Below are positions 21,911 through 36,786 of a stretch of 39,043 nt of DNA, piece by piece. Below the pieces are notes generated by a model, which was not told the DNA's origin, searched no databases, and saw only the letters and a list, made by a program, of their open reading frames with translations. Source of the DNA: Shigella phage Sf6. The stretch is taken from the sequence record AF547987; one strand, 5' to 3'. Both the position numbers and the translations under genes were made by a program. Within the stretch, counting starts at the first letter, position 1; each line of letters opens with the position of its first letter.

Positions 21911-22618
21911 TTATGCCGCCTGTTTTAGCTCGTTAACTCTGATGTTCATTACCTGAACGCATTTAGCCTGCGCCTCCTCGTTGCCAGCCATTAATTGCCA
22001 GTCACGCTGATAACGCTCGATGAGTTTTTTCTTGTCAGTTTCTGTTGACGCATAATCGCTGAAGTCTTTCAGGATTTGCTCGCAGTCAACCGATGGAGAT
22101 TTCTGGTTGGTATTTTCTGGTGATGGTTTGTTATCTGATGCTGGGATTGCCCATCCCGGCAGCGATGGAGGGAGCCAGTAAAATCCTGTTCCATCCTTGA
22201 GTTTTGCCCTGTGCCATCCCTGCTTTTTATCGAGAGATGTTTGTGCGAAACCTTCCTCAAGGTTATACAGATACCGACCGATTCCCCACTGAACGGCAGC
22301 GCGCTTCATTGCACCGGAACGACCACCTTTTACGGCTTCTACCTGCGTGTTTTCAGCAGCATCCCATTTGGTTACCCATTCGGAATCAATCCTGATTGAT
22401 ATGCCGCATTCAACGCCTCCGTTGTTGGGAATATCGCGGTATTCATTGCGCCATCCTGCTTTGCCGCAAACATCGTCCAGGCGTTTCATGATTGCCCGGT
22501 TCGTGACATAAGCCAGCACCATAGCCCACACTTTGCCATCGCGTGTTTTACCGCTTTGCTGTATTCGCCATTCGATATCTTCAGGGCTGAATGGCTCATC
22601 GAATTTATTCAAATCCAT
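21911..22618 (-). CDS. Rad52-family single-strand annealing recombinase
   Basis: 235-aa ORF directly upstream of ssb; N-terminal region resembles Rad52/Sak-type annealing proteins. Confidence 0.55.
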   Translation of the reverse strand: MDLNKFDEPFSPEDIEWRIQQSGKTRDGKVWAMVLAYVTNRAIMKRLDDVCGKAGWRNEYRDIPNNGGVECGISIRIDSEWVTKWDAAENTQVEAVKGGRSGAMKRAAVQWGIGRYLYNLEEGFAQTSLDKKQGWHRAKLKDGTGFYWLPPSLPGWAIPASDNKPSPENTNQKSPSVDCEQILKDFSDYASTETDKKKLIERYQRDWQLMAGNEEAQAKCVQVMNIRVNELKQAA

Positions 22619-22626
22619 AATTCACC

Positions 22627-22797
22627 TCAGAATGGACACGGCCCAAGGAAATAACGCTGATTTAATACTTCGACTCGAGACAAATTAAGGCATACCCGCA
22701 TTCCTTCGCGGTCGCCATTATGGCGATACCAGAGAGCTTTCTGCGTGTACATGCGTCTCTGTAACTTGCTCTCCTTCACTGTGGTTGCAAGTGACAT
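22627..22797 (-). CDS. hypothetical small protein (about 56 aa)
   Basis: Hand-translated ORF with AAGGAG RBS, part of a chain of short overlapping ORFs; coordinates approximate. Confidence 0.25.
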   Translation of the reverse strand: MSLATTVKESKLQRRMYTQKALWYRHNGDREGMRVCLNLSRVEVLNQRYFLGPCPF

Positions 22798-23165
22798 GAA
22801 TATCTCCTTCGTTACCGATTAATTCTTTCATCTGACGAATGAATTCTTCGTCTGACCAGTTATCTGTAAAACTCATTTCCTGCGATACCACGGAAGGTTG
22901 ATAGCTGATTTCATCGCTTTATTTGCTTCAAGCCACATTTTGGAATCACCAATAAATCGGGCTATTACTGCTTTGTTCTGTGCAGCACGAAGCATCTGGT
23001 GATTGATGGCTATTTCATTGCGCATAATAAGACCTCAACTCTTTTCCATCCGTCACGTAATTTACGGGTGATTCGTTCAAGTAAAGATTCATTTAGTTGG
23101 AAGGCACCCATGCGAGCGCCTCCCGCGATTGCGTAAATCATGGGTGGTTCCTTATGTTGGTTTTA

Positions 23166-24134
23166 TTAGTAGGTTATTTTTGTTGCGAATACTTCGCCTT
23201 TTACGATGGCTGTTATGATATTTTTAGCAACATCTTCTGATGCGCCAACCTTGATAAGGTCAGCAAGTATTTTGTTATTTACTTCTTTCCGGTGAGCTTT
23301 ATCCTTTGCTCTGCGCTCTTCTTCGTCCTTGATTCTTTTTTCTTCTGCTATTCTGGCTTGCTCTTTTGCTTCAGCCTCGCGCCGGATTCGTTCAGCCTCC
23401 TCCTGTGCTTTTCGGCGTTCTGCTTCAATTGCCGCTTGCTTTTCTCTTTCAGCTCGTTCTGCTGCCTCTTTTGCTTCGCGCTGTGCTCGTTGCTCGGCTT
23501 CAATGCGTTCACGCTCTGCACGTTCCGCTGCGGCCTTAGCCTCTGCTTCTCGTCTTGCTGCTGCTTCAATTTCGGCTTTTGCCTTTGCTTCGGCTTCTGC
23601 TCTGGCTTTCTCTTCAGCTTCTCTTTTTAAGCGTTCTTCATGCTCTCGCTTTTCCTGCTCCGCTTTGAGTCTTGCCTCTTCTCTTTGGCGGTCAAACTCG
23701 CGATCCATCAAAATCGCTATTTCATGGTCAGACTCAATTTGCTTTGCGAGAGCTTCAGCTGCTGCCTTAGCTTCTTCTTCGGCTTTAATCCGTGCCTGTT
23801 CCTCCTCATAATCAGTAAGAGGCTGGCGCGCCTTGGCTTTCAGTTCATCAAGGCGATCGCGCACCGTCTTGCGGTTGGCATCAATTAGCTTTGGAATTTC
23901 CTTCAGTTCAGCAACAAGGTCTTTGCCAAGACCATCGAGATATGTTTTCGTCTGCGCAACTTTATACGCCAGAGAAGCGATCTCCTTTCTGCCCTTTGCC
24001 GTTGTGATATCAGGCACAAAGGACATAACTTCACGTTCAACCTTTTGGAGAATTTCTTCAATCTGGTCGGCAGACTGAAATACAGTCATTGCATTTGCTT
24101 TTTCAATAACAACTAAATCTGTTACTTCACTCAT
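23166..24134 (-). CDS. hypothetical coiled-coil protein (Glu/Ala/Arg/Lys-rich)
   Basis: Start at ATG 24134 with GGAGGA RBS (track ORF begins upstream); central approx. 150 residues are an EAKA/ERAE-type low-complexity helix. Confidence 0.55.
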   Translation of the reverse strand: MSEVTDLVVIEKANAMTVFQSADQIEEILQKVEREVMSFVPDITTAKGRKEIASLAYKVAQTKTYLDGLGKDLVAELKEIPKLIDANRKTVRDRLDELKAKARQPLTDYEEEQARIKAEEEAKAAAEALAKQIESDHEIAILMDREFDRQREEARLKAEQEKREHEERLKREAEEKARAEAEAKAKAEIEAAARREAEAKAAAERAERERIEAEQRAQREAKEAAERAEREKQAAIEAERRKAQEEAERIRREAEAKEQARIAEEKRIKDEEERRAKDKAHRKEVNNKILADLIKVGASEDVAKNIITAIVKGEVFATKITY

Positions 24135-24322
24135 ATATCCTCCGTCAAAAAAATTGCCCTCACACTGGAGGGCAAAGAAGATTTCCAATAATCAGAACAA
24201 GTCGGCTCCTGTTTAGTTACGAGCGACATTGCTCCGTGTATTCACTCGTTGGAATGAATACACAGTGCAGTGTTTATTCTCTTGTTTATGCTAAAAATAA
24301 AGGCAGACTATGCGGCCTGAAA

Positions 24323-24745
24323 TTACTTAACCAATGATGCCGCATATTCAATTAGGAATAACTTAGGCGCAATCCAAATCTTCAACCATTCGAAATTGAA
24401 GGCAATAATTAAAACACCCATAATTGAGCCAAATATAGGAACAAATACAGTGCATATATCGTAATAAACCGAAGATATAAAATGTCCATCATTTGGACGT
24501 CCATCGAAAGACGTCCATCTCTCGCCATTATTTCTTGCCGTTCTTGCAAAACTAGGAAGTTTAATTGCTGCAATTAAAAGCAACAATCCAGCCACTTGGA
24601 AAAGTGCGCTATGGACAAAACTCCATATTAGCAACTGATGAACAACATCAGGAATCTGTGCCTGGCTGAATGAAACAGCCGCGTCTATTCCATTACTGGC
24701 TTTTTGCAGTAGTTCTACGAGAATCTTGTTTGCTTGTTCTTCCAT
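24323..24745 (-). CDS. hypothetical inner-membrane protein
   Basis: 140-aa ORF with AAGGTGA RBS and at least two hydrophobic helices. Confidence 0.5.
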   Translation of the reverse strand: MEEQANKILVELLQKASNGIDAAVSFSQAQIPDVVHQLLIWSFVHSALFQVAGLLLLIAAIKLPSFARTARNNGERWTSFDGRPNDGHFISSVYYDICTVFVPIFGSIMGVLIIAFNFEWLKIWIAPKLFLIEYAASLVK

Positions 24746-24803
24746 ATATCACCTTGATTGTAATAAGCATGAAATTATTTACGGACAAAAATAAAGGCCA
24801 CCA

Positions 24804-25004
24804 TCAGGCAGCCTTGTTATTCTGTTTACCAAGTTCTCTGGCAATCATTGCCGTCGTTCGTATTGCCCATTTATCGACACATTTCCCATCTTCCATTACA
24901 GGAAACATTTCTTCAGGCTTAACCATGCATTCCGATTGCAGCTTGCATCCATTGCATCGCTTGAATTGTCCACACCATTGATTTTTATCAATAGTCGTAG
25001 TCAT
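24804..25004 (-). CDS. hypothetical protein (Cys-rich)
   Basis: 66-aa ORF in the early-left operon. Confidence 0.4.
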   Translation of the reverse strand: MTTTIDKNQWCGQFKRCNGCKLQSECMVKPEEMFPVMEDGKCVDKWAIRTTAMIARELGKQNNKAA

Positions 25005-25116: not shown

Positions 25117-25266
25117 TTAAGTTACCTGTTATTTATCCCACCAAGTTCCGTATCTATCTATCCAGTTACACCAATCATCGACACTCCATTTTGTTGTGTC
25201 GCATTTTGGCAACTGGCATGAATATCTACCTTCTTTGTAAAGTCGGCGTTTGACTTTCTTGAGCAT
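25117..25266 (-). CDS. hypothetical small protein (about 49 aa)
   Basis: Hand-translated ORF immediately downstream of N with GAGGTG RBS; coordinates approximate. Confidence 0.3.
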
Positions 25267-25274
25267 GGCTCACC

Positions 25275-25607
25275 TCAATCGTAATAAGCTGGAATTGATT
25301 TTCCGCGTTGCTTCTGGCGGCCTGAGCAAGTCACACCCATTTCACAGCGTGGCTTGCTGTACCATGTGCGCTGATTCTTGCGCTCAATACGCTGCAGGTT
25401 GCTTTCAATCTGTTCGTGGTATTCAGCCAGCACCGTAAGGTCTATCGGATTCAGTGCGCTTTCTACTCGTGATTTCGGTTTGCGATTCAGCGAGAGAATA
25501 GGGCGGTTAACTGGTTTTGCGCTTACCCCAACTAACAGGGGATTTGCTGCTTTCCATTGAGCCTGTTTCTCTGCGCGACGTTCGCGGCGGCGTGTTTGTG
25601 CATCCAT
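25275..25607 (-). CDS. N: antitermination protein N (lambda type)
   Basis: Begins MDAQTRRRERRAEKQAQWKAAN, the arginine-rich boxB-binding motif of lambda N; AGGAGA RBS; nutL lies upstream. Confidence 0.9.
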   Translation of the reverse strand: MDAQTRRRERRAEKQAQWKAANPLLVGVSAKPVNRPILSLNRKPKSRVESALNPIDLTVLAEYHEQIESNLQRIERKNQRTWYSKPRCEMGVTCSGRQKQRGKSIPAYYD

Positions 25608-26067: not shown

Positions 26068-26468
26068 TTACTGGTTGCAGGTTCCGACTACATCACCAAC
26101 AAATGATTTGGTTGATGTAAGTTGTTGCATACCTGGGATATTCATTACTTTGGAGTAAAGAGCTTTTTTGTCTGTAGTGATTGACCAAGTTTCAACGGTT
26201 ATTCCTCCTCCAGACTGGTATTCTCCTACCATAGTGTTCGATGACAAAGCAGTGTATTTCATCTCTGGATAGACGCCAGAAACTGATTCATAAACTGATG
26301 ATTTATCGCCATTTATTGTTACGTGGAAAACGGAATCTTCCGTGCTGTCTTTTGTAAACTCGTAACGATCGCCATTCATTGACCCGTACCCGTGCAGGTT
26401 TGTGACAATCCAGCATTCAGAATTGGCGCTGGTAGTTAAGAGTATTGAGAGTAGCGCCGCAATCCTGA

Positions 26469-26472
<4 letters not shown>
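26068..26472 (-). CDS. exported protein of unknown function, downstream of cI
   Basis: Start at ATG 26472 overlapping the cI stop (ATGA); N-terminal signal-peptide-like segment MIRIAALLSILLTTSANS; track ORF extends upstream in overlap with cI. Confidence 0.55.
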
Positions 26473-27419
<947 letters not shown>

Positions 27420-32439: not shown

Positions 32440-32618
32440 GACGACAGCGACGAAGTATCACCGACATCATCTGCGAAAACTGCAAATACCTTCCAACGAA
32501 ACGCTCCAGAAATAAACGCAAGCCAATCCCAAAAGAATCTGACGTAAAAACCTTCAATTACACGGCTCACCTGTGGGATATCCGGTGGCTTAGAGAACGT
32601 GCGAGGAAAACAAGGTGA
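32436..32618 (+). CDS. ninE: NinE protein
   Basis: 60-aa ORF starting [30 protein letters not shown], recognised as lambda NinE. Confidence 0.8.
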
Positions 32619-32785
32619 TTGACCAAAATCGAAGTTACGAACAAGAAAGCGTCGAGCGAGCTTTAACGTGTGCTAACTGCGGTCAGAAGCTGCATGTGCT
32701 GGAAGTTCACGTGTGTGAGCACTGCTGCGCAGAACTGATGAGCGATCCGAATAGCTCGATGCACGAGGAAGAAGACGATGGCTAA
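32615..32785 (+). CDS. ninF: NinF protein
   Basis: 56-aa GTG-initiated ORF ([26 protein letters not shown]...), recognised as lambda NinF; not in the track. Confidence 0.7.
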
Positions 32786-32878
32786 ACCAGCGCGAAGACG
32801 ATGTAAAAACGATGAATGTCGGGAATGGTTTCACCCTGCATTCGCCAATCAGTGGTGGTGCTCTCCAGAGTGTGGAAC
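32778..32878 (+). pseudogene. ninG: ninG (rap) 5' fragment, truncated by IS insertion
   Basis: [34 protein letters not shown] then runs into the IS911 terminal repeat. Confidence 0.8.
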
Positions 32879-32886
32879 TGAAGTGG

Positions 32887-34091
<1,205 letters not shown>

Positions 34092-34127
34092 CTCTGTTCA
34101 GGTGGCCAAATTCAGTGTGCCACTTCA

Positions 34128-36064: not shown

Positions 36065-36139
36065 GGGTCAGTCGTATAAAGGTCATTACGGAAGGCTGTT
36101 AACCTTCTTATCGTGGTTCGAGTCCACGCTGTCCCGCCA
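36065..36139 (+). tRNA. tRNA-Asn (anticodon GTT), with two stem mismatches
   Basis: Hand-folded cloverleaf: anticodon arm GAAGG-CTGTTAA-CCTTC, T-arm CGTGG-TTCGAGT-CCACG, 3' CCA; T:T mismatches in acceptor (4:69) and D stems. Confidence 0.55.
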
Positions 36140-36144
36140 AACAT

Positions 36145-36220
36145 GCTGGTTTAGCTCCAATGGTAGAGCAGTCGCCTTGTAAGCGAATGGGTAGCGGTTC
36201 AAGTCCGTTAACCAGCACCA
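36145..36220 (+). tRNA. tRNA-Thr (anticodon TGT)
   Basis: Hand-folded 76-nt cloverleaf: perfect 7-bp acceptor stem GCTGGTT/AACCAGC, D stem GCTC/GAGC, anticodon loop CTTGTAA, T-loop TTCAAGT, 3' ACCA. Confidence 0.7.
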
Positions 36221-36462: not shown

Positions 36463-36786
36463 ATGAAGATGCCAGAAAAACATGACCTGTTAGCCGCCAT
36501 TCTCGCGGCAAAGGAACAAGGCATCGGGGCAATCCTTGCGTTTGCAATGGCGTACCTTCGCGGCAGATATAATGGCGGTGCGTTTACAAAAACAGTAATC
36601 GACGCAACGATGTGCGCCATTATCGCCTGGTTCATTCGTGACCTTCTCGACTTCGCCGGACTAAGTAGCAATCTCGCTTATATAACGAGCGTGTTCATCG
36701 GCTACATCGGTACTGACTCGATTGGTTCGCTTATCAAACGCTTCGCTGCTAAAAAAGCCGGAGTAGAAGATGGTGGAAATCAATAA
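36463..36786 (+). CDS. S: holin S (class I, dual-start)
   Basis: Begins [34 protein letters not shown] with the Met1-Lys2-Met3 dual start; sdi-like hairpin TCCCC-ttatt-GGGGG upstream. Confidence 0.95.

Follow-up and report, generated by a model that had tools for sequence, protein, structure and literature searches.

SieB of lambda and P22 is a membrane protein of 184-192 aa that is made in lysogens from an N-proximal gene of the lambdoid early-left region, flanked by N (gene 24 in P22) on one side and ral on the other; sieB lies on the strand opposite to PL and has its own promoter, which is annotated in P22. T4 Imm (PF14373; 83-94 aa) is a small inner-membrane protein with a compact helical core and a periplasmic N-terminus. 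Imm is made early in lytic infection, and it blocks the genome entry of secondary phages by binding tape-measure protein (bioRxiv 10.64898/2026.03.06.709160). Lambda also encodes LPR1/PreS, an Hfq-dependent sRNA of about 88 nt that is processed to about 68 nt, has the tL2a terminator as its 3′ end, is confined to the lytic cycle and raises translation of host dnaN (bioRxiv 10.1101/2024.10.31.621285). The locus compared with these systems here is that of gene 34 in the genome of Shigella phage Sf6 (AF547987; 39,043 nucleotides, the whole of which was analysed and is referred to as the window). Gene 34 has been annotated as a hypothetical protein since publication of the Sf6 genome, and the palindrome downstream of it belongs to an sRNA locus that has already been described, PreS. 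A search of the literature on the protein family to which gene 34 belongs (PHROG 3054), on Sf6 gp34 and on exclusion proteins of early-left operons found no functional or experimental data, and the Sf6 experimental-evolution paper, in which deletions fall in the nin region only, says nothing on gene 34. Our best explanation of the locus as a whole, an early, N-proximal membrane protein gene next to a palindrome that is the hairpin of PreS, is put forward with moderate confidence.

The window is a P22-like lambdoid genome, and over positions 24100-24900 its closest record in the phage collection is CUS-3 (96.8% identity). Its PL (leftward) operon contains N (25275-25607, from the ORF list), a 45-aa DUF5484 ORF (25129-25266, by family match), ral (24804-25004, by ORF and comparison with CUS-3), gene 34, a conserved non-coding segment (about 24140-24304, from matches to phage records and alignment with lambda), a gene for a 322-aa charged coiled-coil protein (23166-24134), small ORFs (about 22600-23150) at the positions where CUS-3 annotates cIII and kil, a correspondence by position alone, and a gene for a Rad52-type recombinase (21911-22618, by family match). 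Gene 34 runs in the same direction as PL, is N-proximal and follows the ral terminator, in agreement with the early-left location given in the first-pass annotation. This arrangement recurs among related loci: the family gene lies no more than 0.9 kb from N and on the same strand in 74 of 78, starts less than 40 nt behind the N or Nun match in 18 of 78, and follows ral in 27 of 78, the others in which N was found having it within 0.9 kb of N.

Gene 34 occupies positions 24323-24745 on the minus strand, starts with ATG and encodes 140 aa, identical (100%) to the 'Gene 34 protein' of Shigella phage Sf6 (Q716E1/AAQ12224.1). A Shine-Dalgarno sequence, AAGGTGAT (24755->24748, minus strand), ends 2 nt ahead of the ATG and is complementary to the 3′ end of 16S rRNA, so that the ribosome-binding site is strong, as had been claimed earlier. 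The TGAGGTGATATATG-type junction ahead of gene 34 homologues is kept in related loci. The 20 nt GCTTATTACAATCAAGGTGA upstream of gene 34 (24749-24768, minus strand) look like the sequence in which the 3′ end of N meets the ribosome-binding site of the gene that follows it (compare GCTTATTACGATTGAGGTGA at 25289->25270), and this N-end-like remnant suggests that gene 34 may have been relocated by recombination out of an N-adjacent position. Upstream, between ral and gene 34, lies a terminator-like hairpin with a T-run (24815-24794, minus strand), the ral terminator, which in the alignment is homologous to the ral-distal sequence of lambda. Just past the gene 34 stop codon is a weak terminator-like hairpin, also with a T-run (24319-24304, minus strand), whose right half is a repeat of the ral terminator. 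Alignment with lambda further showed that gene 34 is carried on a 494-bp segment absent from lambda and flanked by direct repeats of AAAAATAAAGGC (left copy 24293-24304, right copy 24787-24798).

A segment absent from lambda, 12-bp direct repeats and a terminal terminator-like hairpin are features of gene 34 that recall phage morons such as HK97 gp15. Morons have a promoter of their own, and none was found for gene 34; many relatives have the family gene directly behind the stop codon of N, leaving no space for one. Gene 34 would appear to belong to the operon and to have been shifted by recombination between terminator and junction repeats, rather than to be an autonomous moron. The scan that found no promoter-like site on the gene 34 strand was consensus-based, and a weak or activator-dependent promoter upstream of gene 34 could escape it. 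One candidate upstream of the gene, TTGTCC-17-TATTAC, was considered and rejected; its -10 element is without the final T, it was not called by the scan, and it derives from the remnant of the N coding sequence. With the gene on the PL strand and no promoter found, expression from a prophage is not indicated. The PL orientation, the proximity to N and the lack of a detected promoter together make gene 34 most likely an N-dependent early lytic gene that is silent in the repressed prophage; its transcription would require both an open PL and antitermination by N, and so would be confined to early lytic growth.

The first-pass annotation had proposed a SieB/Abi-like protein on the grounds of location and topology. 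The gene 34 product is, like SieB, a membrane protein with an N-proximal gene in the lambdoid early-left region, and this part of the proposal stands. The resemblance goes no further in homology, orientation or promoter. Against the SieB profile PF14163 the gene 34 protein gave no match at E <= 10, whereas lambda SieB scores 1e-29, and hhalign against an alignment of lambda and P22 SieB returned a probability of 0.3%. At 140 aa it is shorter than SieB, and its gene lies on the PL strand with no promoter found, in contrast to the opposite orientation and own promoter of sieB. A SieB-specific form of the proposal is therefore unlikely. A further idea, that a locus carries either gene 34 or sieB but never both, was rejected, as the two occur side by side: of 80 loci, 7 have P22-type sieB as the divergent neighbour of a family gene, and lambda-type sieB adjoins one in one of 43 sieB loci. 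T4 Imm and the gene 34 protein are both small inner-membrane proteins, and they would also agree in early lytic production and a periplasmic N-terminus as predicted for gene 34; the gene 34 protein gave no match to the Imm profile in Pfam (PF14373). Where Imm has a compact core, proteins of the gene 34 family combine an extended N-terminal helix with helices at the C-terminus and, between these, a hypervariable hairpin.

The gene 34 protein matches PHROG 3054 (function unknown) over its full length (E = 1.8e-52, residues 1-140 against profile positions 1-137 of 137), and all 141 diverse family members tested (141/141) match the same PHROG. The family is large. A profile search of 1.84 billion representatives returned 3,539 at E <= 1e-3 and 1,623 at E <= 1e-10, giving a family of more than 3,500 clusters at 50% identity. 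At 90% identity, 495 clusters matched the gene 34 protein, nearly all of them named 'hypothetical', and a match was present in 269 of 5,426 complete E. coli genomes (about 5%), including UTI89 and APEC O18. A tblastn search of phage genomes identified 179 records with a homologue which, outside lambdoid phages, include N4-like Salmonella phages, phi92-like myoviruses and many Vibrio phages, as well as a Ralstonia jumbo phage and Pseudomonas and Rheinheimera phages. Family members are thus found in enterobacterial prophages and also in the early regions of strictly lytic phages, the early-region context being seen in the N4-like phage FSL SP-076, in phi92 and in Vibrio, Pseudomonas and Rheinheimera phages. 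In non-lambdoid phages the homologues sit amid small early genes or beside replication and recombination genes; that of Barba19A lies in a small early gene cluster, beside genes for NAD salvage and a macro-domain protein. A conserved partner gene was sought and rejected, the neighbourhoods in six unrelated phages having no gene in common, and no conserved neighbour hints at a pathway for the family. PHROG 3054 ranks with the larger of the uncharacterised families of early genes in phages that infect Gram-negative bacteria, and an envelope function of the family (exclusion or counter-defence), if true, would apply broadly.

Searches of the gene 34 protein against Pfam, NCBIfam and PADLOC gave no family match, only a sub-threshold match to DUF1031 in Pfam; a Pfam scan of 24 diverse members gave scattered single matches of the sort that transmembrane (TM) segments give by chance, and a profile search of the family against PDB sequences found nothing relevant. 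Structure comparison gave a similar result. An AlphaFold2 model built from a 141-sequence alignment (pLDDT 93.3, pTM 0.73) has helices at residues 2-72 (an N-terminal helix running into TM1), 93-116 (TM2) and 119-139 (the C-terminal helices). Foldseek identified no significant relative, either with a pLDDT 75 model searched against BFVD and the PDB or with the pLDDT 93 model against the PDB; the best PDB E-values were 1.7-2.0, and the best BFVD matches were uncharacterised phage proteins that are probably family members. Gene 34 is without detectable sequence or fold kinship to SieB, Imm or any characterised protein. Remote-homology comparison by profile and hhalign, a check suggested with the SieB proposal, spoke against kinship with SieB, and it brought up no clear homology to a protein of unrelated function.

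The two-helix topology described in the first-pass annotation was borne out by both hydropathy and the AlphaFold2 model. Kyte-Doolittle analysis showed two hydrophobic segments at about residues 38-62 and 95-118, and exactly two such segments are present in 245 of 262 homologues. Conservation in the family is concentrated outside them, in the N-terminal part (about residues 1-46) and the last 24 or so residues (about 117-140), while TM1, the loop and TM2 are free to vary, in length as well as in sequence. The residues kept almost without exception are F26, P32, Q37, L38, L39 and W41 on the N-terminal side, and I123, A126, P127, K128, L131, E133 and Y134 on the C-terminal side; both family motifs that flank the TM segments, F-x5-P-D-V-x2-Q-L-L-x-W and W-L-K-I-W-x-A-P-K-L-Y-L-x-E-Y-A-A, are present in the gene 34 protein. 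The termini retain 80-90% amino-acid identity even where third codon positions differ at 50-70%, a pattern indicating that both termini are under strong purifying selection and do not owe their similarity to recent common ancestry. The centre of the protein is about 30% identical, with at least 10 central types among 77 lambdoid loci, and some pairs of loci have breakpoints within the family gene. AlphaFold2 models both terminal segments as helices with confidence, and as there are two TM helices, the two segments must lie on one side of the membrane. Lysine and arginine are concentrated after TM1 (2.6 per 10 aa, compared to 0.34 before it) and the N-terminal tail is net acidic (245 homologues), so that by the positive-inside rule alone the loop is predicted to be cytoplasmic and both conserved termini periplasmic. 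The TM hairpin would be a poorly constrained anchor, and the N-terminal helix and C-terminal helices the functional parts.

The palindrome, GTGTATTCA-N10-TGAATACAC, lies 60 nt beyond the stop codon of gene 34, at 24236-24263, and is an exact inverted repeat with a 10-nt spacer, just as first reported. As 9-nt arms with a spacer it is statistically unremarkable: the window contains four perfect 9-nt inverted repeats with a spacer of 3-20 nt (three distinct sites), compared to 2.8 +/- 2.0 expected from 200 shuffles. Even so, no other close-range inverted repeat of the window is as long as the one whose core it forms, which has 22-nt arms that are 82% complementary. In the leftward RNA this forms a hairpin (24226-24273, minus strand) with a stem of about 12-14 bp (z = -6.3), in which pairing, G-U pairs included, runs through the palindrome's 'spacer' to a 4-nt loop, CAAC. 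The whole 191-nt intergenic RNA likewise folds far better than shuffled sequences (z = -5.05). Matches to the palindrome segment occur in 329 phage records, those of 933W, HK022, phage 21 and Stx phages included, and identity reaches 95% or more in 320 of the records. In lambda the segment is nearly identical and lies between ral and ea10, and the palindrome itself is identical. By its pairing with gene 34 in the first-pass annotation the palindrome had been implied to be linked to the gene, but lambda is without gene 34, which refutes the link between the two; on this comparison the palindrome is evidently not part of a gene 34 system, and it is to be read instead as a hairpin ahead of PreS.

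The PreS homologue of the window, of about 88 nt, lies at 24147-24234 on the minus strand with 5′ end GAGCAAUGUCGCUCGUAACU, and is identical to lambda 34011->33924 at 86 of 88 positions, the PreS seed UUCUGAUUAUUGG being identical in both. Its 3′ end is a tL2a-type intrinsic terminator, with the stem-loop at 24154-24175 and the U-run at 24147-24153 (minus strand). The 5′ end was placed from P810/P1103, primers used in the lambda study for cloning and in-vitro transcription, which have the sRNA begin at GAGCAATGTCGCTCGTAACT (bioRxiv 10.1101/2024.10.31.621285), and the palindrome ends 1 nt before this position (24234). As in lambda, PreS in the window follows the last of the N-proximal accessory genes and precedes the next module, the gene upstream being ral in lambda, nun in HK75 and gene 34 here. 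A scan of the window with Rfam 15, using gathering and E-value thresholds, returned two tRNAs only, PreS being evidently not in Rfam 15. Among the loci fetched, the hairpin is upstream of 98 of 105 PreS copies. In three loci (L012, L071 and L084) its sequence is replaced by the unrelated CCTATAGCAGA-TTTACGAG-TCTGCTATGT, which again forms a hairpin; this one has 11 bp and a 4-nt loop and stops 2 nt short of the first nucleotide of PreS. This replacement by a different sequence that also folds into a hairpin favours a role in RNA over one in DNA binding.

On the rival reading the palindrome would act as DNA, either as the operator of a dimeric regulator or as a site of recombination, and this would account for the perfect 9-bp arms with their 10-bp spacer and for its position at a mosaic boundary between modules. 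We consider this reading highly improbable, since pairing that continues through the spacer, G-U pairs included, as far as a 4-nt loop makes sense in RNA alone, the repeat stops 1 nt short of a mapped sRNA 5′ end, a hairpin reappears at the same place from unrelated sequence in the three loci, and chance should yield about three perfect 9-nt inverted repeats in a window of this size. The reassignment of the palindrome to PreS also bears on the original proposal for gene 34, a prophage-expressed, SieB/Abi-like exclusion protein that blocks or aborts infection by heterologous phages in lysogens and has the palindrome as its regulatory site, because that site is present in lambda without the gene. 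The proposal is unlikely for further reasons: gene 34 has neither homology to SieB nor the orientation of sieB nor a promoter that could be found, the family gene stands beside sieB in the 7 of 80 and one of 43 loci given above, strictly lytic phages carry homologues, and cI is frameshifted in the window, so that this particular genome cannot maintain a lysogen. What speaks for it is that the N-ral-cIII stretch of the PL operon, near which lambda and P22 have sieB, here encodes a small membrane protein in a phage that lacks both sieA and sieB, together with a hypervariable centre and intragenic recombination that fit a locus of conflict. A protein that alters membrane potential or lysis timing, in the manner of a holin, antiholin or viroporin, is slightly less probable again. 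Small size, two TM helices and amphipathic terminal helices would suit such a role, and Foldseek gave one weak match to a putative holin in the viral library (E = 1.2); however, family genes were never seen in a lysis cassette in the contexts examined, which are those of early regions, no holin family in Pfam or PHROGs was matched, the C-terminus of the gene 34 protein is not a highly charged cytoplasmic tail, and the genome has a holin of its own, gene 61 (36463-36786), whose ORF contains the published Sf6 gene 61 mutations (36479-36725).

Two functions at the envelope or in the host come out ahead of these. Our leading, and tentative, guess is by analogy with Imm: gene 34 may have an early-lytic envelope function in which periplasm-facing helices hinder the DNA entry of secondary phages. 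Imm binds a specific tape-measure protein, and such a mechanism is not easily squared with a family whose termini stay conserved among phages that differ greatly in morphology and host; conservation across differing tail types points to a general rather than a phage-specific target, and this leaves the Imm analogy a weak favourite. Possible too, and nearly as likely as the Imm-like function, is a role in host takeover or counter-defence, in which the conserved terminal helices would bind a conserved component of the host inner membrane or periplasm. The early PL neighbours of gene 34 mostly act on host targets (Ral, cIII, Kil and the anti-RecBCD proteins), the homologues of lytic phages lie in small early gene clusters, near the NAD-salvage and macro-domain genes in Barba19A, and conservation of the termini across phages of Enterobacteria, Vibrio, Pseudomonas, Ralstonia and Rheinheimera is what a conserved target would produce. 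Set against this, no partner, domain or motif points to a target, and the hypervariable centre goes unexplained unless it is a neutral anchor. Candidate host targets in such a role would be a protease, the division or secretion machinery, or a membrane-bound defence effector, with the infecting phage as the beneficiary. It is rather unlikely that gene 34 has some other function altogether. More speculatively, the family could be a very widespread and unrecognised class of early inner-membrane effectors in temperate and lytic phages of several Proteobacteria, whose periplasmic terminal stalk acts at the envelope while the hypervariable, recombining TM hairpin tunes specificity; we hold this broader idea to be doubtful, if a little less so than some other function. 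The envelope function of such effectors would be the exclusion of secondary genome entry or the neutralising of a membrane-based host defence.

For the hairpin, in its preferred reading as an RNA element of the PreS locus, the most likely role is to set the 5′ end of PreS when the PL transcript is processed, to cap the upstream mRNA, or both. Its extended, imperfect stem of about 22 bp is of the size used by RNase III. The hairpin may be a processing site (e.g. for RNase III) that frees PreS from the 3′ UTR of the upstream gene, whichever gene that is, and it could act as a 3′ cap through which the mRNA upstream is stabilised. The preprint on the lambda sRNA (bioRxiv 10.1101/2024.10.31.621285) discusses neither the hairpin just 5′ of PreS nor the way in which PreS is produced, and the juxtaposition of hairpin and PreS provides a testable hypothesis for how an sRNA that reprograms host DnaN synthesis is excised from the PL transcript. 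A few loci carry single uncompensated mismatches in the arms of the hairpin.

A homologue of LPR1/PreS, the Hfq-dependent small RNA of lambda, lies on the minus strand of the window at 24147-24234, is identical to the lambda sequence at 86 of 88 positions and ends at its 3′ end in a tL2a-type terminator; a search of the window against Rfam 15 returned no match for this homologue. In three of the related lambdoid loci compared (L012, L071 and L084), the hairpin that usually lies directly 5′ of PreS has given way to CCTATAGCAGA-TTTACGAG-TCTGCTATGT, to which it is unrelated in sequence. This substitute also folds, forming a hairpin of 11 bp, closed by a 4-nt loop, that stops 2 nt short of the PreS 5′ end. 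The hairpin upstream of PreS in these three loci has been exchanged in sequence and retained in structure.

Gene 34 encodes the two-helix membrane protein. The 20-nt sequence GCTTATTACAATCAAGGTGA upstream of gene 34 (24749-24768, minus strand) repeats the N-end junction, GCTTATTACGATTGAGGTGA (25270-25289, minus strand), and comparable N-end remnants were found 5′ of the homologous gene in loci that have sieB or a different gene between it and N. These remnants, lying before gene 34 and its homologues alike, point to shuffling of modules through recombination at the N-end junction. A P22-type sieB, sharing 49-92% identity with P22 SieB, divergently adjoins the gene 34 homologue in seven loci (L044, L059, L062, L071, L077, L084 and L085), where it is located approximately 150 nt upstream on the opposite strand, and a lambda-type sieB is likewise divergently adjacent in L106. 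Intragenic breakpoints were present among the gene 34 homologues of L007-L086. Comparison of the window with the L037 type showed that 11% of third codon positions differ in the first 45 codons of gene 34 and 50% in the last 24, and that the centre of the gene product shares only ~29% amino acid identity.

Downstream of PreS, a 340-aa ORF was called on the minus strand at 23166-24188 from a TTG start, overlapping the tL2a terminator. The true start is likely the ATG at 24134 (GGAGGATATATG), giving a product of 322 aa that is a highly charged coiled coil rich in Glu, Lys, Ala and Arg. Its PHROG matches, 1376 and 21365, are both families without an assigned function, and a homologue in phage HF4s carries the annotation 'similar to phi80 Agt / Gam antitoxin'.

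Between N and cI, a 158-aa ORF (26068-26544, minus strand) matches PHROG 2651, of unknown function, and had no match in Pfam, NCBIfam or PADLOC. Within it, a stretch resembling a signal peptide (MIRIAALLSILLTTSANSEC) comes after an internal Met. In other lambdoid phages this position is occupied by rex-type accessory genes, and the ORF is therefore, by its location, a further candidate accessory or exclusion gene. The cI-like repressor gene is split into two minus-strand ORFs (26705-27100 and 26469-26681) by an apparent -1 frameshift within a C run (26681-26712), such that the product ends in ...GDSMTSL*, where relatives have a different 21-residue reading. The frameshift can be attributed either to a clear-plaque mutant or to a homopolymer sequencing error; whichever its origin, the genome as sequenced probably could not maintain lysogeny.

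The window as a whole appears to comprise the complete genome of Shigella phage Sf6: its gene 34 product is identical to the Sf6 entry, and the coordinates published for gene 61 agree with it. Elsewhere in the window, genes for tRNA-Asn (GTT) and tRNA-Thr (TGT) lie side by side on the plus strand (36065-36220), just 5′ of the lysis genes. At 32600-34100, several minus-strand ORFs (e.g. 32887-33726, 279 aa) lie in the nin region, which presumably carries the IS911 insertion placed there by the Sf6 literature. This is reportedly the region lost from experimentally evolved Sf6 (PMC5630979).
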